A stretch of DNA of 56,285 bases from Parcubacteria group bacterium (GTDB taxonomy: Bacteria; Patescibacteriota; Minisyncoccia; Phycocordibacterales; WO2-35-19): assembly GCA_012514175.1 (NCBI GenBank), contig JAAZAU010000001.1:1-56285 (forward strand), in the 5' to 3' direction. Every line of letters begins with the position of its first letter. Positions within the stretch are counted from its first letter, which is position 1. Under the pieces are notes generated by a model. The model worked only from the letters and a program-made list of their open reading frames with translations, searched no databases and was not told where the DNA came from. Below are positions 6,819-56,285 of the stretch, one piece after another. The position numbers were made by a program, and so were the translations under genes.

Positions 6819-7349
6819 ATGTCAGTTATTAAACATAAAAATCAACGTGTCGGTATATTTATAGACACTCAAAACCTTTATCATAGCGCTAAAAATATTT
6901 ATGGTAGCAAGGTTAATTTTGACCAAGTAGTTAAAGAGGTTCTTGCAGGACGTTCATTAACTAGAGCGGTGGCTTACGTTATTACCACCGAATCTGGTGA
7001 AGAAAAAGGTTTTTTTGAAGCTTTGGGCAAAATAGGGATTGAAACTAAGACTAAAAATTTACAAGTTTTTGCTGGTGGCGCTAAAAAAGGGGATTGGGAT
7101 GTGGGTTTGGCTATTGATGCTATTAAATTATCATCCAAACTTGATGCGATTATTCTTATAACTGGTGATGGCGATTTTGTTCCGTTGGTAGAATATTTAA
7201 AAAATAGTGGTTGCCAAGTAGAAGTAGCTTCTTTTGGTAAATCAACCTCGGCTAAACTTATTGAGGTGGCGGATGATTTTATAGATTTGGACAAAAATCC
7301 TCGCAAGTATCTTATCTCTGGTAATAAAAACCGAAACCGAAACAAATAA
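6819..7349 (+). CDS. NYN (LabA/DUF88, PIN-like) domain protein
   Basis: FIDTQNL, KGDWDVGLAID, TGDGDFVPLV, ADDFIDL. Confidence 0.9.
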   Translation: MSVIKHKNQRVGIFIDTQNLYHSAKNIYGSKVNFDQVVKEVLAGRSLTRAVAYVITTESGEEKGFFEALGKIGIETKTKNLQVFAGGAKKGDWDVGLAIDAIKLSSKLDAIILITGDGDFVPLVEYLKNSGCQVEVASFGKSTSAKLIEVADDFIDLDKNPRKYLISGNKNRNRNK

Positions 7350-7518
7350 TAAAAAATACTCTCTCGCTTTGCGCAGTTTTTCTGCTGAAATTTTTTTTTA
7401 TTTTCCTCTTGGTTGGGTTTGTGAAGTGTGTTGGAGAAGTATTTTATTTTTTTATTCCCATTTTTTTCTATTGTTTGTTTTATTTTTGATATAATAAATA
7501 TTCGCGGAAGCAATATTT

Positions 7519-9270
7519 ATGCACGTAGAAGATTCACAAATAAAAGATTTTATTATTGATACTGGTCTCATCTCTAAATCAGAAGTAGAAGAGATTGAAA
7601 GCGAGGCTAAATCCAAAAAAAAATCTCTAAGCGACTTGCTTGTTTCTAAAGGCAAATTTTCTGATGATGATTTGCGTCGTGTTCAAGCTTATATCTTAGG
7701 TATTCCTTTCATAAATCTAAAGGGTCAGACTTTAAATCCTGATATTTTAACTTTGATTCCTGAGCCGATTGCTAGAAAGCACAACATAGTTGCGTTCAAT
7801 AAGAAAGAAGATTCGCTGGAAGTGGCGATGCTTGATACTGATGATTTGCAAGCTCTTAACTCCATCAAGAAAAAAGTGGGACTCAAAATTTTGCCACGTC
7901 TGACTGATTCTGAATCAATGAGAAGCGTGCTTATTCAGTATCAAAAAAATCTTAAAGATGAATTTGGTGATCTCATTAAAACCGATTCTGACGAAATTAA
8001 AACAATATCTGAAAAGACGTCCACCGATAATACTTCTTTAGGTGATCTTAAAAAATTAGCTGAAGAGTTGCCGGTGGTGCGCATTGTTGACACCTTGCTC
8101 AAACACTCAATCATTCAAAACGCTTCTGATATTCACGTAGAACCTTTAGAAGAGCAAATTTTGATAAGATACAGAATTGACGGCATATTGCACGACGCTA
8201 TGATTTTGCCGAAACACATCGGTTATTCGTTGGTGGCGCGTATTAAAGTGCTTTCTAATCTAAAGTTAGACGAAAAAAGATTACCGCAAGACGGTAGATT
8301 TAAGATAGATATGAATGGTGAAAGAGTTTCTTTTCGTGTTTCAACTCTTCCGGTTTATTATGGAGAAAAAATTGTAATGAGGCTTTTGCGCGAATCGGTT
8401 TCTGGGTTCACCTTAGAGTCTTTAGGTTTTCACGGTGAAGGTTTAGAGCTTTTACATAAATCTTTGCAACGCACCACTGGTCTTATACTTACTACCGGTC
8501 CTACTGGTTCTGGTAAATCTACTACTCTTTACACAATGCTTGATATTTTAAACACGCCGGATGTAAACATTTCTACAATTGAGGATCCAATTGAGTATCA
8601 AATGAAAAGAGTTAATCAAACTCAAGTTAGAGCGGAAATCGGTTTAACGTTTGCTTCGGGTCTTCGCACCTTGGTTCGTCAAGACCCTGATATTATAATG
8701 GTGGGTGAAATTAGAGACAACGAAACAGCTTCTTTGGCTATCAACGCTGCACTTACTGGTCACTTGGTGCTTTCTACGTTACACACTAATTCAGCTTCGG
8801 GCGCTATTCCTAGACTTGTTGATATGAAAGTAGAACCGTTTCTTATCATTTCCACTATTGACGTTATTATTGCTCAAAGATTAGTTAGAAAACTTTCAGG
8901 CAAAAAAGAAAAATATTATCTTGATGATTCTGAACTTGATTCCTTTGCTAAAGTAATTGATATGGATAGGGTGTTACGAGCTTTGCGGGAAGAAAAAATA
9001 ATCGGTAAACATGATAAGTGGGAAAACATACCTTTTTATAAACCTAGTAAAGACGAGGGAGACAACGCTTTTAAGGGGCGTATTGGTGTCTATGAAGTGC
9101 TTAATGTTTCTAATGCTGTTAGAGATTTGATTATCAAAGGTGCTACCGCTGAAGACATAGAACTTCAAGCTAAAAAGGAGGGTATGCTTTCTATGATGGA
9201 AGATGGAATTTTCAAAGCTGCTCAAGGGCTTACCACTATTGAGGAAGTTTTGAGGGTGGTGTCGGAATAA
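7519..9270 (+). CDS. pilB: Type IV pilus/T2SS assembly ATPase (PilB/GspE)
   Basis: ASDIHVEP, RLPQDGR, Walker A GPTGSGKST, TIEDPIE, RQDPDIIMVGEIRD, GHLVLSTLHTN. Confidence 0.93.
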   Translation: MHVEDSQIKDFIIDTGLISKSEVEEIESEAKSKKKSLSDLLVSKGKFSDDDLRRVQAYILGIPFINLKGQTLNPDILTLIPEPIARKHNIVAFNKKEDSLEVAMLDTDDLQALNSIKKKVGLKILPRLTDSESMRSVLIQYQKNLKDEFGDLIKTDSDEIKTISEKTSTDNTSLGDLKKLAEELPVVRIVDTLLKHSIIQNASDIHVEPLEEQILIRYRIDGILHDAMILPKHIGYSLVARIKVLSNLKLDEKRLPQDGRFKIDMNGERVSFRVSTLPVYYGEKIVMRLLRESVSGFTLESLGFHGEGLELLHKSLQRTTGLILTTGPTGSGKSTTLYTMLDILNTPDVNISTIEDPIEYQMKRVNQTQVRAEIGLTFASGLRTLVRQDPDIIMVGEIRDNETASLAINAALTGHLVLSTLHTNSASGAIPRLVDMKVEPFLIISTIDVIIAQRLVRKLSGKKEKYYLDDSELDSFAKVIDMDRVLRALREEKIIGKHDKWENIPFYKPSKDEGDNAFKGRIGVYEVLNVSNAVRDLIIKGATAEDIELQAKKEGMLSMMEDGIFKAAQGLTTIEEVLRVVSE

Positions 9271-19794: not shown

Positions 19795-20661
19795 ATGAAG
19801 TCTTCTAAACTCAAATTAATTACGCTTGGGATTTTATTTTTTGGTGCTGTTTTTTCTGTTTATGTTTTTTGGTGTGAGGAAAATAATGGAATCTTGAAAG
19901 TGACTTTTCTTGATGTTGGTCAAGGTGATGCGATATTTATTGAATCACCTAGCGGTAATCAGATTCTTATTGACGCTGGTCCAGATAAAAAAATATTACG
20001 AGAATTATCAAAGGTGATGCCTTTTTATGATCGTTCCATTAATGTAGTATTGGCTACTCACGCCGATCAAGATCATATTGGCGGACTGCCAGAAGTTTTA
20101 AAAAATTACAAAGTAAATATTTTTATGGAATCTGGTGTTCCCGGAGAATCTTCTACTTATAAAGAATTGGAAAAATTAGTCAATGATGGAGAAACGGAAA
20201 AAAACGTTAAAAAAATATTAGCGAGAAGAAATATGATTGTAGATTTGGGAGATGGGGCGGTTTTACAAATTCTTTTTCCTGATAGAGACCCGACTGGTAT
20301 GGAAACCAACACAGCGTCTGTGGTAACAAAATTAGTTTATGGAGAAAATGAATTTTTACTCACCGGAGATTCGCCAATCGCGATTGAAAACTATTTAGTT
20401 TCTGTAAGTGATCTTTCAAGTAATGTTTTGAAAGTTGGTCATCATGGCTCTAAGACTTCTACGGGGCAAACTTTTGTCTCGGCTGTTTCTCCGGAGTATG
20501 CTGTTATTTCTGTTGGCGAAGATAATAGATACAATCACCCCAATCAAGCAACTTTAGATACTTTAACTAATTTTGGTGCTGAAGTTTTACGAACCGATAA
20601 ATCGGGACGTATTATGTTTAAAAGTGATGGACTTAATTTAAGCGTAAAAACCACCAAATAG
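19795..20661 (+). CDS. ComEC-type metallo-beta-lactamase domain protein (split ComEC C-terminus)
   Basis: FLDVGQGDA, THADQDHIGG, LTGD, KVGHHGS, YNHP. Confidence 0.9.
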   Translation: MKSSKLKLITLGILFFGAVFSVYVFWCEENNGILKVTFLDVGQGDAIFIESPSGNQILIDAGPDKKILRELSKVMPFYDRSINVVLATHADQDHIGGLPEVLKNYKVNIFMESGVPGESSTYKELEKLVNDGETEKNVKKILARRNMIVDLGDGAVLQILFPDRDPTGMETNTASVVTKLVYGENEFLLTGDSPIAIENYLVSVSDLSSNVLKVGHHGSKTSTGQTFVSAVSPEYAVISVGEDNRYNHPNQATLDTLTNFGAEVLRTDKSGRIMFKSDGLNLSVKTTK

Positions 20662-33925: not shown

Positions 33926-34351
33926 TGGTGGAGAAGGGGGCATTGAAGCCCCATGCAAACAAGTTTTGATAATGCTTCTACGTGATTTAGTTAATTTTAT
34001 CCACCTAGGTGGAGTTCAATGTTTATTCTATAAAATTAACAAAATAAACAAACATCTAGTTTCTTGATTTCAAAAATAAAACGAAACAATTTTTATTTTC
34101 TAAGTCCGAAGTTATTACAATTCCTTTCCTGAACAGACTTGAGGAGGGAACCGTCGCTTAGGCGAGAGTCTTGAAATTAAGCTCTAACGTAAGCGAAAGC
34201 AAAATCATTGACTCCAAAATATGGAGAAACAACTGACTTAGCTTTTGCAACTATATTTTTTGCATTTGTGTTTCGGAAACTTTTTTAGAGTTTTTCCAGC
34301 TCTATCACGCACATTGTCAAAGAATCTTATTTGTCTAAACCTTTCATCCCC
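33926..34351 (-). ncRNA. ssrA: tmRNA
   Basis: 5' GGGGATG and 3' CTTCTCC-ACCA with G3:U70; ATAGTT-GCA resume context; tag ORF 34248-34177; directly downstream of smpB. Confidence 0.9.
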
Positions 34352-47883: not shown

Positions 47884-48913
47884 TTACCCTTTTTTGATAA
47901 TTTTAAAAATTGAAGCCTTTTTCCTGGAAACCAAAATCTTCAGTTTCTTTTGACCTTCAAAAAAATTTTTGAATTGAAGTATTGCTCCCTCAAATTTTTC
48001 AACAGAGCCGGTTAAGATAACAGCAATTCCTTTATTAACGAGCATTCGTTTGAATGCTTTCAACATATCAATATAGAAAGCAACCAGATTGTCAATTTTT
48101 TGATATTCTCCCCACGGAGGATCTGTAATAATCTTGTCCATGGTTTCATCCTTGATCTCTTTTAAGTTCAAGGCGTTAGCGCACAAAATTTCTATATTCC
48201 TATGTTTACTTAGATTGTTTTTTAATTTTAAAGTTAGGCTTTTATCTTGATCTACTGCAATTAAAAATTTGTATGGAAAACTATGGATTCTTTCTTTGGG
48301 AATAGCGCCATAACCAGCAAACGGATCTAGAATAATGTCTTTAGGAGAAGGGGCTGACAAAAAAGATAAAAGGTGAGCCAATTCTGTTTTGAGTTTGCCT
48401 TTTTGTTTTGATTTAATTTTGTCATAGTTATATGAAATTCTGGTGCCAAAAAAATCAATTCCTTCGGACCTCAAAATAAACCAAAATTCCAAATCAGGGT
48501 TCTTTACGCTTAGTTTGAGATCTTCTATAAAACACAACTTCTCTTCTAATTTTTTTACTAAACCGCGATCAACTGAAATCATTTGATTTGCTAAAGAAAA
48601 AACAATCTTAAACCTTCTTCTTTTAGGGGGGGGGCAGACTACTCTTGATTAGGGGAATAAAGTTTTTAACCCCCAAAACTTTTTTTACCATTAGAACAAA
48701 ATATTCACTCGTTGGGTTTGCATCTTTAAACTCGTATAGCAATCTAAAAACATTATTTAGAAAACGATAATTTCTTACGTCTCTTTCGGTTGCCTTAGTC
48801 TCAAATACAACTAAACCATCAAAGATTTTAATATCTTAGCTTTTCCTTTTTTTGAGCAAAATCTCAATTATTTCTTGAGTCCCACTAATAAATGTTGAAA
48901 AATAAACTTTCAT
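47884..48913 (-). pseudogene. RNA methyltransferase (Trm11/UPF0020-like), N-terminus disrupted
   Basis: LDPFAGYG and ITDPPWG in 47884-48582; upstream frame from ATG 48913 has an in-frame TAA and a frameshift in a C9 run (48626-48634). Confidence 0.7.
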
Positions 48914-49035: not shown

Positions 49036-49240
49036 AATCCGAACTCTTGTTTGTCCTATCAAATGTTTTTGACGGAATCTCCTCCGCACATCCTTCCGCC
49101 TCGCCCTCGCTCGTTCAAAAAATTTCAGGGCAAAACTGAAACGCTCGGGCGAGCAAAAAGGAAGGGATTAGGGGAAAGGAATTTTTACCCACCCTCGCTT
49201 TCCACCATCGCCGAATTTCGTGCCAACGAAGTTGACACGT
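49036..49240. repeat. GC-rich repeat element, left island flank
   Basis: Shares CTCGCTCGTTCAAAAAATTTCA (49106-49127), AATCCGAACT and GGCGAGCAAA with 56110-56285. Confidence 0.6.
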
Positions 49241-49257
49241 TGCTATTTGTTTTCTTC

Positions 49258-51161: not shown

Positions 51162-52694
51162 ATGCTTACAAAAAAACAGAAACAAGTTTTAGATTTTATA
51201 TCCTCCTATCACAAGAAAAAGGGATATGCCCCTTCTTTGGAAGAGATACGCAAAAAACTTAAAGTTGCCTCTGTTTCAACCGCCCATTTCCATGTAAAAA
51301 ATTTGCAGAATTTGGGATTTATCGGGAAGCAAGATAATAGACCAAGGTCAATTGATATTTATGAAAAGGAAAAAATGGTAAATGTTCCATTACTTGGATT
51401 AATTGCGGCTGGTCAACCTATTGAAGCGATACAAAGTCAAAACAGAGAAACAATCGCCGTTCCAAGAAGTAAAATATCTCGCAATGGTGAATTTTACGCT
51501 TTAAGAGTAGTTGGTGACAGTATGATTGATGAAAATATAAATGACGGCGATTTAGTTTTAGTTAAACAACAAGATACCGCTAAGAATGGACAAAAAATAG
51601 TTGCCCTTGTGGACAACTATGAAGCTACTTTGAAAAAATTTTATAAAGAAAAAAATTATATAAGATTACAACCTGCGAACAAAACAATTGAGCCGATTAT
51701 TATAAAAAGAAATAGAGAGTTAACAATACAAGGTATTGTTATTGATGTAATAAAAAATGAAGAAGAGATACAAGCTGAAACACTTTTAGAAAATAAAGAA
51801 ATAAAAAGAAGTCAAACACTTCCTTTGAATAAAATTATTTTAGGCGATGCCGTAGAAGAATTAAAAAAATTACCAAATGAAAGTTGTGATGTTGTTATTA
51901 TTGATCCACCATATAATATCGGAAAGGATTTTGGAAATAACTTAGATAAGCGCGAATTAAAAGAATATGTCGCTTGGTGTAAAGAATGGATAAATGAATC
52001 AATTCGGGTTATGAAGCCCACGGGAACAATGTTTATTTATGGGTTTAGTGAAATACTCGCCTATCTTTCAGTTGAAATTTCGATCAATAAACGCTGGCTT
52101 ATTTGGCATTACACAAACAAAAATGTTGCCTCGTTAAATTTTTGGCAAAGAAGCCACGAGGCTATAATTTGCGCTTGGAAAGATATCCCAATTTTTAATA
52201 AAGATGATGTTAGAGAGCCATACACTGAAGGTTTTTTAAATGGAGCCGCGGGAAAAGTTAGAAAAGGAACCGCTGGGAGATTTAGCCGTAATGGAAAAGA
52301 AACAATTTATAATGCTCATGCTGGCGGGGCTTTACCTCGCGATGTAATAAAAATACCAGCTTTAGCTGGTGGAGCGGGAATGAATGAAAGATGGTTTATT
52401 TGTAAAACTTGTAAAAATCAAGTTTTTGAGCCAAGAGAATTAAAAAACCATGCAAAGCATGATATAGTCAAGCACCCTACGCAAAAACCTCTTGAATTAT
52501 CAAAAAAATTAGTGATGTCCGCAATGCCCAAAAAAGACGGGGTTGTGTTGGTGCCATTTGTTGGAACCGGTTCTGAGTGTGTAGCAGCTAAAAAGTTGGG
52601 TCAATCTTATATAGGGTTTGAAATAAATCCCGACTATATAAAATTGGCTGAAAAATATCTGGAAAAAAGCAAATACACTCCAAAATTATTTTAA
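51162..52694 (+). CDS. lexA: LexA repressor fused to beta-class N6-A/N4-C DNA methyltransferase
   Basis: LTKKQ..YAPSLEEI wHTH, IAAG cleavage site, VGDSM (Ser), ATLKK (Lys); then IDPPYN, HPTQKP, PFVGTGS, IGFEIN in one frame. Confidence 0.9.
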   Translation: MLTKKQKQVLDFISSYHKKKGYAPSLEEIRKKLKVASVSTAHFHVKNLQNLGFIGKQDNRPRSIDIYEKEKMVNVPLLGLIAAGQPIEAIQSQNRETIAVPRSKISRNGEFYALRVVGDSMIDENINDGDLVLVKQQDTAKNGQKIVALVDNYEATLKKFYKEKNYIRLQPANKTIEPIIIKRNRELTIQGIVIDVIKNEEEIQAETLLENKEIKRSQTLPLNKIILGDAVEELKKLPNESCDVVIIDPPYNIGKDFGNNLDKRELKEYVAWCKEWINESIRVMKPTGTMFIYGFSEILAYLSVEISINKRWLIWHYTNKNVASLNFWQRSHEAIICAWKDIPIFNKDDVREPYTEGFLNGAAGKVRKGTAGRFSRNGKETIYNAHAGGALPRDVIKIPALAGGAGMNERWFICKTCKNQVFEPRELKNHAKHDIVKHPTQKPLELSKKLVMSAMPKKDGVVLVPFVGTGSECVAAKKLGQSYIGFEINPDYIKLAEKYLEKSKYTPKLF

Positions 52695-53375
52695 AGAATT
52701 ATCTATTTCTTTTTTCTTCGGCAAAAAAGTATCTGGTGTAAAAACAACAAAACCATTATCAAAAGCCTTTGTTCGTTTGTCTTCCAAAAATCTTAAGTAA
52801 GGCAATCTAAATTCGCCACTCTTTGTTTTTGGATCAGACAAACAAGTCGGCACTTCATATTTTATATCTATATTTTCGCCGTTATTTTTCTTTTTTCTCG
52901 GCAAAGGAACTCTGCTCATCACTCCACTAAAACTTGTTTTCTTGACTTGATAATTTAAAATACGATTTTTATAATTAACTCTTATATCTGCGCCTAAAGA
53001 ATCAAGCTCACGAGACATATCCACTGTTCCATTTCCAAAAACGGATTCGGCAACATAACCGCCGTGAATTTGAGTTATTAACCCCGCCCAAGTTCTGTAA
53101 ATTCGGGCTTCTATTCCGCGATAAAAACAATCTTTACACATTGTTGTTTTCTGTCTAAACTTTTCAAGTAAATCTCCTTTCTCTTTCGTATATCTTTTAT
53201 AAAATTTTTCAAAAGTAATAAATTTTTTCTCTTCCCAATATACTTTATATAAAAGTTCAATGGCTTGAATTCCTTTTGGCAAATCCATTTCAACAATTTT
53301 AATAGTGCTATATTTTTTTCTATAGTCTTTTAAGGGAACAGTTTGTAGAAATTTATCAAATTTTTCTAAATACAT
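52686..53375 (-). CDS. TaqI-family type II restriction endonuclease
   Basis: FL..YRKKY..IK.VEMDLP, GIEARIYRT, TQIH, ELDSLGAD, YQVKK, NGFVVF match my recollection of R.TaqI in order. Confidence 0.8.
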   Translation of the reverse strand: MYLEKFDKFLQTVPLKDYRKKYSTIKIVEMDLPKGIQAIELLYKVYWEEKKFITFEKFYKRYTKEKGDLLEKFRQKTTMCKDCFYRGIEARIYRTWAGLITQIHGGYVAESVFGNGTVDMSRELDSLGADIRVNYKNRILNYQVKKTSFSGVMSRVPLPRKKKNNGENIDIKYEVPTCLSDPKTKSGEFRLPYLRFLEDKRTKAFDNGFVVFTPDTFLPKKKEIDNSLK

Positions 53376-53376
53376 A

Positions 53377-53595
53377 TTAAATAAAATAATTTATTTCTTT
53401 TTTATATATTTTTGCGAGTTCTTGTAATTCTGCTACATCAATTCTGCGTTCGCCTCTTTCAATTTTTGATAAATAAGATTGAGGTTTTTTTAATTTTTTA
53501 GCAACTTCTTCCTGTTTTAAACCAATTTCAAACCTAGCTTTTTTAAGCCTTTCAATAGTTTTTTTATATTCTTTTGAATAAATTGACTTGTTCAT
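53377..53595 (-). CDS. XRE-family HTH controller (C-protein-like)
   Basis: 72 aa, LKQEEVAKKLKKPQSYLSKIERGERRID; immediately upstream of and co-oriented with the endonuclease. Confidence 0.85.
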   Translation of the reverse strand: MNKSIYSKEYKKTIERLKKARFEIGLKQEEVAKKLKKPQSYLSKIERGERRIDVAELQELAKIYKKEINYFI

Positions 53596-53602
53596 ATTAC
53601 TT

Positions 53603-53648
53603 TTAGTATATATCCTATTGTAGGATATCCCAAAATAGGTTATACTAA
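53603..53648. promoter_or_regulatory. Tandem palindromic operator between divergent -10 boxes
   Basis: ATATCCTA-TTG-TAGGATAT (53610-53628) and ATATCCCA-AAA-TAGGTTAT (53625-53643), flanked by TTAGTATA/TATACTAA. Confidence 0.65.
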
Positions 53649-53882
53649 TTTAGGGAGCTTCTCTCTGTTGCTCGCGCATGGGTGGGCGAGGCAAATACAG
53701 CTCAATTAATTTGCTATACTACATAAGTATTCAGCTAAGGTGTTCTTATAAATAAACACCTTATGGACTCTCAGGATTAGACTTTGGTCTAATCTTACTT
53801 TCTTTACTGGGTTCACAAGCATGGTGCTTGCGGATTCCGAGAGGTTCGGCTCTTTGCAAACCACAAACAAAAAGGAGAGAAT

Positions 53883-54722
53883 ATGACTCATTCAAAACCA
53901 ATTAGAATTCTTTTGGTGATGGGAGACTCGCTTCTGAGAGCAGTCAAGCAGGTTTTGTTGACTGTTGGAAACAAGTCCTTGTACACTTTTGTGGAGGATG
54001 TTAGTCAGGCAGATCTTGTCATCTTCACAGAAGTTCGAGATGTTGAGCGCGGGTACGACAGGAATAAAATCTACGCGTATCTGCAGGCAGGATCAAGGGT
54101 AACAACAAAGCTACCCGAAAACTGTCTGATTATAAACACTCTTGCTGGAAATGCTGTGGAGGTTATTATCGAGGCAATTGAAAAGGCCAGAAAGCTTCTT
54201 AAACCGACCACTGAAAAGTCGGTTATTCGAAAAGAAAAATCGGTCCCGCTTCTGCCAGACGCTCTGCGGATTCTCATCATTGATGATGAGCCAATGAATA
54301 TCGCCAGTGCTAAGAAAACTCTGGCTGGGCACCGACTCTCGACAGTAACAGGCTACGAAGACGCGATGAATATTCTTGAAAAAGAAAAATTCAACGTTGT
54401 TCTCACCGACTTGCATCTGCCGATGAGTTCAAAAATGCTCAGCGACAAAGCTTTCAAGCTCGGTGAGCTCATTCCTTACGGAATTCTGCTCATGGTCGAG
54501 GCAGCGCGACGGGGTGCAAAACATGTGGCCGTCGTTACTGACCTCAATCACCATGATGACCCTTTCTCGGCAGCGTTTGATCACTACTCTAATTTTCCCG
54601 TGAAAATTGAAGGAGCGAAAGTGGTTATGATGCACGCGCCGATGATTGAAATCAAGAAAAACAAATGGGTTAAAGATTGGGCAATGGTTCTTGATTTCTT
54701 GGTTGGGGGAAACGAGTCATAA
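53883..54722 (+). CDS. Atypical response-regulator-like protein (C-terminal receiver domain)
   Basis: AAGGAG SD; RILIIDDE and VLTDLHLP receiver motifs; N-terminal domain unrecognised. Confidence 0.65.
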   Translation: MTHSKPIRILLVMGDSLLRAVKQVLLTVGNKSLYTFVEDVSQADLVIFTEVRDVERGYDRNKIYAYLQAGSRVTTKLPENCLIINTLAGNAVEVIIEAIEKARKLLKPTTEKSVIRKEKSVPLLPDALRILIIDDEPMNIASAKKTLAGHRLSTVTGYEDAMNILEKEKFNVVLTDLHLPMSSKMLSDKAFKLGELIPYGILLMVEAARRGAKHVAVVTDLNHHDDPFSAAFDHYSNFPVKIEGAKVVMMHAPMIEIKKNKWVKDWAMVLDFLVGGNES

Positions 54723-54855
54723 ATATCCCAGTTAAACAGTTCTTTTGTTCACCCGAAGGGAGGTGATAAATTGGGAGGATAGCATTATCCTCCTCCCATT
54801 AAAATTTTTAACACGTTTGAAGATTTTAGTGGGAGAATTTTCTCTTAAAAATCGC

Positions 54856-54884
54856 TTGACATAAAAAGTGGAATATGCTATACT
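54856..54884 (+). promoter_or_regulatory. Strong sigma70 promoter with extended -10
   Basis: TTGACA-17 bp-TATACT with TG at 54876-54877. Confidence 0.8.
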
Positions 54885-54889
54885 TGAAG

Positions 54890-55235
54890 AGTATTGAGTT
54901 CTTTGGCATGACAGCTTCGTTTCTCCCCATAAATCCGCTAAAACGTTGGTTTATGGGGGGAGAGGAAAAAGAGCTAGCAGGCTACACACTCTAACCAAGC
55001 TTTCATAATCCCGATATCGGTGTTGAATCAAACCATACCGATATAAAAGGATAAGTTTGAAGGCCAATCAGAGGCGTGTGGGCGTTCGACTGGCGATGAC
55101 ATTTCTTCTTCCCTTTTGTTCTGTGAGCGCAGGTTGGGACAGCCTTGGCGCCGGCAAGTTCTTGTGGGGACCCAACTATAGCAGCAAACCGCTGGAGATT
55201 TCTTTTTTTTGTGAGATTTCCAGCGGTTATTTTTA
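54890..55235 (+). ncRNA. Candidate ~345-nt structured non-coding RNA
   Basis: Lies between consensus promoter and terminator; several nested stems; no SD-led ORF. Confidence 0.55.
55187..55235 (+). terminator. Intrinsic terminator
   Basis: AACCGCTGGAGATTTC / GAGATTTCCAGCGGTT stem followed by T-rich tail. Confidence 0.8.
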
Positions 55236-55449
55236 TTTCAATTTTTAAAAATTAAATTCCTCCGGTTTCTGTCTTATTGCTTACTCTTTAATCTGTGCTT
55301 CCAATCTCCATTTACGATTAACAAAAGCATCAACATCTTTTTGAGTTATTTTTACATCCACTCCAGAATCTCGTGTGGCGCTATACAGTTTCCTTTTTAA
55401 GGTATATAAGATTGACTAATTTCTGTTTAGGTTTAGAGTGTAGCTACCT

Positions 55450-55970
55450 ATGAGTTCCATTGATTATAGTCAGTTTCTAGAATTGATTTCCCCTAACAAC
55501 TTTTTTTGTTCTGGTATTTGTTGGTGTTGTATTACTTGTTAATAATGTTCAAGAAAGATCAAAGGTTTTTAATTGTCGAACCAATTTTATACCTAAACCT
55601 CGATAAGAAGACCGATGCCTTTATGTCTTTCTGTGCTCGCTATACAGGTGTTGGAATCTTGCCGATCATTCTCTTTTATTTTGGAACACTTGAGTACTTA
55701 TCTGGAAATATATATCTGATAACTTTTTCCTTCTCACTCATATTCCTTATTTTTACCTGGTCGGCATATGGATACTCGCTTAAAAAACTCAAGGATATTG
55801 TGCCGGTTGATGTATATTTTACAGATGAAAAGAACGAGCCATTGCAAGGAGTTAGAATTCTTAAAATAAACGATGACAATATACGTATTCGTTCAAATAA
55901 CAAGACTTTGATAATAAACAAAGGTGAAGTTCTCAAAATAGAAATGAAGACACCTGAGCATCTTCAGTAG
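55450..55970 (+). CDS. Hypothetical membrane protein, probably frameshifted at T7 run 55501-55507
   Basis: ATG 55450 (MSSIDYSQFLELISPNNFF) joins the 55506-55970 frame if one T is added; about three TM helices and a small C-terminal beta domain. Confidence 0.55.
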
Positions 55971-56109
55971 AATTCATTTTTCTGTGCGGTAACTTTTAAA
56001 TGGTCCATTATCTTATACTCTTTTGTGTGTTCATGAGGATTAACAAATCTATACCAAAGTTCGGAATGATACCAATCTTTACCACTTTATTTTCTTTTTT
56101 CGTATTTCG

Positions 56110-56285
56110 GCTTCGCCGAGCTCTCGCTCGTTCAAAAAATTTCAATTTCGCTGAATGTAAATTGGCGGTACCTTTTGGTTAAAATCCGAACTTTTTTTGA
56201 TGAAAATCCCGATTTTGACTTTTAGACCCGCCCCAGCGTTTCCGCCCGCCGAAATTCGGCGAGCAAAGCAAAACAATTTTCTTTC
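56110..56285. repeat. GC-rich repeat element, right island flank (truncated by window end)
   Basis: CTCGCTCGTTCAAAAAATTTCA at 56123-56144 identical to 49106-49127; further shared blocks. Confidence 0.6.

Follow-up and report, generated by a model that had tools for sequence, protein, structure and literature searches.

An independently transcribed non-coding RNA is encoded close to the end of the DNA analysed here (the window), a stretch of 56,285 nt that forms the whole of contig C8 in a 635,603-bp, 14-contig Parcubacteria genome with an estimated completeness of 100%. The gene is framed by its own promoter and intrinsic terminator, its product has a strand-specific fold, and it is present in RNA libraries without its flanks. 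It is an orphan bacterial ncRNA gene that belongs to no described RNA family. The reading we lean towards is that of a genuine trans-acting ncRNA gene, confined to a single lineage and carried on an accessory segment of this 0.64-Mb Parcubacteria (CPR) genome. Its function, as far as it can be deduced, is most likely that of a stable trans-acting regulatory or protein-binding RNA.

The transcription unit and its predicted fold

The TTGACA-17-TGnTATACT promoter described in the initial annotation was confirmed, with 11 of the 12 consensus positions and the TG of an extended -10 element present (Table 1). A search of both strands of the 56 kb that fixed the spacer at 17 nt and allowed up to one mismatch found three sites, against 0.72 expected from shuffled sequence, and this promoter is among the three best sigma-70-type promoters of the window. 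Promoters of the same style precede other units in relatives. Judged from the position of the -10 box, transcription likely starts at ~54890-54896, a few bases 5' of the GAGTTC named in the earlier annotation. With the predicted ends, the gene spans about 335-345 nt. The 16-bp terminator claimed for its 3' end was recovered as 16 pairs in the fold, followed by a U-rich tail. This terminator is absent from a consensus terminator scan because its loop has 10 nt and the scan allows 3-8. Upstream, two hairpins 3' of the neighbouring gene P0001 probably end the P0001 transcript, to judge by their sequence, in which case the RNA would be a separate unit.

The + strand of the unit folds with a minimum free energy (MFE) of -123.7 kcal/mol, compared with -96.2 +/- 5.2 for dinucleotide shuffles (z -5.3; none of 100 shuffles was as good). 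For the - strand, z was -2.5 and 2 of 100 shuffles were as good. The strand asymmetry arises because 18 of the 112 pairs in the fold are G-U, and, within the limits of folding models, the G-U share and the asymmetry point to the + strand as the RNA. A genomic background was built by folding both strands of 769 windows, each of 340 nt, from contigs C1 and C2 (~14% of the genome), with z obtained by robust regression on G+C. Against this background the + strand had a robust GC-adjusted z of -3.2, whereas the - strand was ordinary (z -0.26). Values as low as that of the + strand were found in 56 of the 1538 strand-windows, ~40 of them within 57-61 kb of C1, an apparent rRNA stretch.

Three domains and a linker make up the predicted structure (Table 1). 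Pairing in the 5' domain is near-certain by unpaired probabilities. Six of the seven stems proposed in the initial annotation are present in both the MFE and centroid folds; the seventh, GGTTGGG/CCCAACT, lies outside the MFE structure and survives as an alternative with a pair probability of ~0.16. A fold forced to include it has an energy of -123.4 kcal/mol, a cost of 0.3 kcal/mol, so the 3' domain is ambiguous in these models, whereas the 5' domain and central arm are well defined. Neither a tRNA-like fold nor tandem repeats were found in the unit.

A word index listed 24 public runs, 20 of which hold at least part of positions 54600-55500; five of these are RNA libraries, with shares of 0.13-0.22. 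Every sampled word of the stretch was found in 12 runs, which may be the source of this DNA. The runs are labelled as anaerobic digester, biogas fermenter or bioreactor metagenomes. Assembled contigs of three of the five RNA runs, from three studies, and of one DNA run, were mapped onto 53600-56285 (2686 nt). Each RNA run yielded exactly one contig in this region, in every case inside the predicted unit and identical to the window; none fell on P0001, the downstream ORF or the spacers within the mapped region. The DNA run, from the same organism (0 differences), gave patchy cover of the flanks. Across the four mapped runs, from four studies, the sequence showed no other letters. The RNA-run contigs stop short of the first ~46 nt of the predicted RNA and of the terminator, and the stop at 55164 common to the contigs of runs X17 and X18 was not taken as an RNA end. 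Assembled contigs carry no information on strand, transcript ends or level, and DNA may be present in RNA libraries; the sole argument against DNA carry-over is that the RNA-run contigs lack the flanks. Recovery of this stretch and nothing else of the region in three studies matches what would be expected of an abundant stable RNA.

Table 1. Positions in the window of the RNA gene, its structural elements, matching contigs and neighbouring features
Feature	Position	Strand	Basis or remark
RNA gene	~54891-55235	+	Predicted ends
Promoter, TTGACA, 17-nt spacer, extended -10 TGCTATACT	54856-54884	+	TGC before TATACT
5' domain: closing helix (GAGUUCUUU.../...AAAGAGCU) enclosing a small hairpin and a 16-bp C-rich/G-rich hairpin (54920-54963)	54896-54976	+	MFE and centroid folds
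5' hairpin helix	54920-54935/54948-54963	+	MFE and centroid folds
Central arm, long irregular hairpin of ~103 nt	54981-55083	+	MFE and centroid folds
Central-arm helices	54981-54992/55070-55083, 54999-55005/55058-55064, ATCC/GGAT, 55014-55021/55037-55044	+	MFE and centroid folds
Linker, pyrimidine-rich, mostly unpaired (AUGACAUUUCUUCUUCCCUUUUGUUCUGUGAG)	55096-55127	+	Unpaired probabilities
3' domain, two competing folds	55128-55185	+	One holds GGUUGGG/CCCAACU
GGTTGGG/CCCAACT alternative stem	55132-55138/55171-55177	+	Outside the MFE fold
Intrinsic terminator: 16-bp stem, 10-nt U-rich loop, then UAUUUUUAUUU	55186-55235 (stem 55186-55202/55213-55228)	+	MFE fold
Two hairpins 3' of P0001: GGGAGGA..TCCTCCC, then a 19-pair stem (54793-54835) followed by T-rich sequence	54758-54835	+	Sequence; 54793-54835 in terminator scan
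Contig of RNA run X16	54942-55189		100% identical to window
Contig of RNA run X17	54964-55164		100% identical to window
Contig of RNA run X18	54990-55164		100% identical to window
tmRNA	33926-34351		
Methyltransferase	47884-48582		
~180-nt element, first copy	~49090-49250		
LexA-methyltransferase fusion	51162-52694	+	
TaqI-like restriction endonuclease	52686-53375	-	
HTH control protein	53377-53595	-	
P0001, receiver-domain protein	53883-54722		
Open stretch of 44 codons	55284-55415	-	
Promoter-like site	55412-55439		
Small membrane-protein gene	55506-55970	+	
~180-nt element, second copy	56105-56285		

Homologues, known RNA families and coding potential

BLAST searches were run against three overlapping sets of genomes. 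Among 61 relatives, the one match was of 30 nt and covered the promoter (in genome G015). Among 401 genomes of the order, 39 contained matches of 18-44 nt (best E 0.002), many of them in the T-rich terminator, and these were judged to be chance. The 401 genomes of the class gave one 25-nt match (E 8e-4), likewise regarded as chance. A covariance model built on the single sequence (R1; the first 195 nt of the RNA, 62 pairs) was run with the stricter filters of Infernal; over 150 genomes it found itself and one further match, in genome G140, and over 151 genomes of the class it found nothing. The G140 match (21 bits, E 0.003 per genome, ~0.5 expected over 150) was rejected, as it lacks a promoter, lies in different surroundings and has a second arm that is much shorter. 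Two exact patterns searched against viral contigs, and blastn against phages and plasmids, returned nothing. The homologue search that had been proposed with the initial annotation, carried out with BLAST, nhmmer and the covariance model, therefore leaves the RNA without a second sequence in any set searched. Since nothing alike was found outside this organism, the RNA would be young or fast-evolving.

Several partial resemblances were followed. A promoter look-alike at locus L106 drives a lipoprotein gene and was set aside. On contig C4 of G015 (locus L002, ~1530-1345, - strand), a promoter matching that of the RNA at 27 of 30 positions is followed by a terminator-like hairpin after ~130 nt without a real ORF, and further on lie ~300 nt of GC-richer, ORF-free sequence; this locus is a candidate for another small RNA, unrelated in sequence. 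Within the genome itself, positions 54951-54970, the 3' strand of the 5' hairpin, match contig C6 (~19966-19990) at 19 of 20 positions, in the last codons of a 443-codon ORF that we guess from its C-terminal peptide to be serS. This match is purine-rich, has a genome-wide E of 0.055 and does not extend, and is probably due to chance.

At the gathering threshold, Rfam 15 gave seven matches in the window (six tRNAs and one tmRNA), none of them in 54856-55235. At E <= 10, 12 matches were obtained in 54600-55500 (best E 1.5), all far below gathering; among them, a SprD match (14 bits, E 3.5, - strand) was attributed to chance and a CRISPR-DR match (E 6.3) lies outside the unit. Infernal thus assigns no Rfam family to the unit at either level. 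The description of the unit as an unclassified ncRNA was upheld by this absence of Rfam matches, together with inner ORFs without relatives and RNA-library contigs confined to the unit.

The initial annotation had also recognised no hallmarks of RNase P RNA, SRP RNA, tmRNA or a riboswitch; in agreement, no such model matches the unit, and RNase P RNA and tmRNA were located elsewhere. RNase P RNA was found on contig C4 of this genome (13544-13924; 83 bits, E 3e-26), below the Rfam gathering score of 100 bits for RF00010, so standard annotation would miss it. The tmRNA lies in the window itself (Table 1). Neither model touches 54856-55235, and both identities were rejected for the unit. The 6S RNA model (RF00013) had no match at the unit or in the genome. 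After ndk on contig C10 (~7345-7520; L114:1846-2020), a -10-like box is followed by a rod-like RNA of ~140 nt with large internal loops and a terminator. This rod, undetected by RF00013, has a folding z of -7.6 and is, on its modelled structure, a candidate 6S-like RNA. The unit itself was rejected as 6S RNA, having a three-domain fold and no rod.

SRP RNA models (RF00169 and RF01854) matched nothing here or across 41 genomes of the order. Searches for Ffh and FtsY in this genome found no SRP_SPB or SRP54 domain; an SRP54-type search of the 41 genomes gave weak matches of ~30-40 residues in the P-loop region in five, and an Ffh M domain was found neither here nor in 40 relatives. A passage in Nelson and Stegen 2015 (PMC4508563) describes ffh and ffs alike as undetected in all Parcubacteria genomes, and the absence of Ffh, FtsY and SRP RNA here agrees with that passage. 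With no model match and no Ffh or FtsY partner in the genome, SRP RNA was rejected as an identity for the unit. Retron msr/msd and DRT-type ncRNAs were rejected because the 635-kb assembly contains no RVT_1 domain (the contig ends 1 kb downstream of the unit, and an unassembled gene may lie beyond), mobile-element guide RNAs (omega RNA, IS110 bridge RNA) because the unit adjoins genes for a REC-like and a small membrane protein and the HEARO model has no match, and CRISPR or tracrRNA because the unit has no tandem repeats and no CRISPR model match.

Coding potential was assessed in the six inner ORFs of the unit (34-63 codons). None matched a Pfam family, and four were also compared with PHROGs without a match; the 63-codon frame, searched against 5.8 billion proteins, matched its own called product alone. 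Full-text literature searches yielded no publication that describes this RNA or catalogues the ncRNAs of CPR bacteria.

An accessory genomic setting

The product of the gene upstream of the RNA, P0001, is 279 aa long. A receiver domain, with conserved acidic residues visible in the alignment, occupies part of its C-terminal half and is preceded by an N-terminal domain of unassigned type; no output domain is recognisable. The P0001 family comprises 132 hits at E <= 0.001, mostly with 45-60% identity and from CPR metagenomes, and its relatives carry the names Parcubacteria, Paceibacterota or Taylorbacteria. The distribution is patchy, with P0001 present in 2 of 61 genomes including this one, and the closest homologue (P0004) is 69% identical by BLASTP and 71% in the alignment. 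A single-protein search of genome contigs gave generic receiver domains from unrelated phyla, and a search of viral contigs with the P0001 alignment gave nothing. A metagenome search with a 33-sequence alignment yielded 25 loci, in none of which was such an RNA found by nhmmer, blastn, ORF maps or R1. At these loci and in genome G020, ordinary ORFs follow the P0001 homologue in the absence of any such RNA.

Further upstream lie genes for an HTH C-protein, a TaqI-like REase, a LexA-peptidase-methyltransferase fusion and a DUF4209/PDC-S39 protein. The fusion ORF is unusual: its 510 aa combine a LexA DNA-binding domain, an S24 peptidase and an N6/N4 DNA methyltransferase, an arrangement through which the amount or activity of the methylase could be tied to SOS-type self-cleavage. 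The R-M genes and the DUF4209/PDC-S39 gene make the label "defence island" in the initial annotation a fair one. The tie that it suggested between the RNA and these defence genes was not supported, as 25 metagenome loci and one relative with P0001 lack the RNA and there is no reverse transcriptase. Neither R-M genes nor a PDC-S39-type gene is known to need an RNA.

Downstream, 277 nt separate the terminator from the small membrane-protein gene, with a promoter-like site between them. An element of ~180 nt occurs in two diverged copies (~70% alike, with indels) that bracket a 7-kb segment (49.1-56.1 kb) containing the PDC-S39-type gene, the R-M genes, P0001, the RNA and the membrane-protein gene. 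No further copy was found in the genome by blastn, and the two may be att-like sequences or recombination scars. A contig of DNA run X13 follows the window over 56032-56168 and then leaves it for sequence that resembles the 3' half of a tRNA in - strand orientation; other contigs join positions 56159, 56236 and 56264, in the terminal part of the window (56159-56285), to different DNA. By ARAGORN, the assembly has tRNA-Ser genes with anticodons GGA, UGA and CGA and none with GCU. The contig probably breaks at a repeat beside an unassembled tRNA-Ser gene.

The RNA has a G+C content of 46%, compared with 36% for the genome, and P0001 and the RNA together stand at 43-50% against 20-38% on either side. 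Because the raised G+C is common to both, it may reflect foreign origin and not selection on the RNA. The methyltransferase at 47884-48582 occurs in 1 of 17 genus genomes, this one. Collectively, the patchy occurrence of P0001 and the methyltransferase, the repeats, the tRNA-like junction and the raised G+C indicate that the RNA lies on accessory, strain-specific DNA, which was probably acquired. Convergent with the terminator of the RNA is a 44-codon open stretch that ends in a stop and has no start and no Pfam match; its sequence reads like the C-terminal remnant of a lost gene.

Proposed role and alternative explanations

As a trans-acting ncRNA, the transcript would accumulate as a stable molecule and act away from its own locus. 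The rigid 5' domain and central arm could stabilise the molecule or offer a surface to which proteins bind. Contact with a partner, either a purine-rich RNA or a protein, could fall to the unpaired pyrimidine-rich linker and the flexible 3' domain. The linker is, on the modelled fold, a candidate interaction site. A seed scan of the linker against 694 putative start regions (approximated) gave a minimum of -22.6, compared with -23.7 +/- 1.7 for shuffled linkers. Since the predicted duplexes were no better than those of shuffled linkers, a protein partner is at least as likely as RNA targets.

Island-encoded sRNA genes, such as those of the Spr RNAs in Staphylococcus aureus pathogenicity islands and the Isr RNAs in Salmonella islands, offer the closest parallels. 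Like the unit, they have their own promoter and intrinsic terminator, lie on horizontally acquired DNA, show narrow or no spread and contain no ORF. With ~340 nt and three domains, the unit exceeds most of them in size and degree of structure; the target scan revealed no complementarity, and the host is an uncultured CPR bacterium. In RNAIII of S. aureus, exposed pyrimidine-rich stretches pair with ribosome-binding sites. RNAIII resembles the unit in its length of several hundred nt, its stable helical domains and its exposed pyrimidine-rich stretches, but the unit has no sequence or model similarity to RNAIII, contains no conserved peptide, and its predicted targets do not rise above background. 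The raiA, ROOL, GOLLD, OLE and HEARO RNAs are often found in mobile DNA or near tRNA genes and are, like the unit, strongly folded and protein-free-looking; unlike the unit, which matches none of their models at E <= 10, they are defined by wide conservation and covariation. By analogy, the unit's mode of action would come closest to that of lineage-specific sRNA genes on islands and of multi-domain regulatory RNAs.

The location of the gene would also suit an RNA of the island or of a mobile element that cooperates with adjacent genes, by regulating the R-M system or P0001 or as a maintenance or antitoxin-like RNA of the 7-kb segment. The segment carries the TaqI-like REase, the C protein, the LexA-methyltransferase fusion and the PDC-S39-type gene, it has diverged flanking repeats and, in another assembly, a junction into tRNA-like sequence, and raised G+C is common to P0001 and the RNA. 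We nevertheless consider this role unlikely, as P0001 homologues occur without such an RNA in 25 metagenome loci and one relative, the unit has no repeats and there is no RT and no adjacent Cas, TnpB, IscB or IS110-type gene. Antisense RNAs of R-M systems overlap their targets, and the RNA here is separated from the R-M genes by 1.3 kb. The unit's orphan status in every search, and the rearrangement scars nearby (the repeats and the startless 44-codon stretch), are what might be seen if a strong promoter and terminator had come to surround functionless foreign or decayed DNA that happens to fold well. Such a transcribed relic is given a low probability, because a z of -5.3 on one strand, clean helices with G-U pairs and a precise promoter-terminator frame are unexpected of junk, and because the sequence is identical (no other letters) in the four mapped runs from four studies. 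Twelve further runs contain all sampled words, though these may be the source of this DNA.

Other alternatives assign the transcript to familiar classes. It might be an mRNA or dual-function RNA for a small protein, given open frames of 28 codons from an ATG at 54908 and of 50 codons from an ATG at 55097 (inside the ORF at 55057-55248) and a 56-aa product (P0123) reported by one gene caller. This is quite improbable, as the product finds only itself among the 5.8 billion proteins and belongs to no family, the longer frame crosses the terminator hairpin and no purine-rich ribosome-binding site precedes either ATG. A role as cis-acting leader of the membrane-protein gene, whether riboswitch or attenuator, would accord with the shared strand and with a terminator that precedes that gene, but it is very unlikely: the 277-nt gap to the ORF contains a separate promoter-like site, no riboswitch family or aptamer model matches, no alternative pairing was seen for the 5' strand of the terminator (by reading) and no RNA-run contig extends beyond 55189. 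A very divergent universal RNA (SRP, 6S or RNase P RNA) would have a fitting size, and Rfam models detect neither SRP RNA nor 6S RNA in the genome. We give this identity almost no weight, since RNase P RNA lies on C4, a 6S-type rod follows ndk, Ffh and FtsY are absent and a universal RNA would be expected in the 16 genus relatives, none of which has the unit. The passage cited above from Nelson and Stegen 2015 (PMC4508563), in which the lineage lacks ffh and ffs, argues against it as well.

A bolder and improbable reading extends beyond this locus. The unit could be a member of an unrecognised class of fast-evolving, strongly promoted, structured RNAs of 260-580 nt on Parcubacteria accessory DNA, each private to a narrow lineage and acting in mobile-element conflict or in dealings with the host cell. 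An RNA of this class might, for example, lure away a host or phage protein as a decoy, or act as a scaffold for one. Were this true, the missing homologues would reflect arms-race turnover, not lack of function.

The reading we lean towards, a trans-acting ncRNA gene of a single lineage, concerns the CPR bacteria, which account for a large share of bacterial diversity and whose RNA biology is almost unexplored. The gene described here is an orphan with unusually complete circumstantial support, comprising a promoter, a terminator, structure on one strand and presence in three independent anaerobic-digester metatranscriptomes. If private, highly expressed RNAs of this kind are common in reduced CPR genomes, they would represent a layer of regulation or conflict that annotation has missed.
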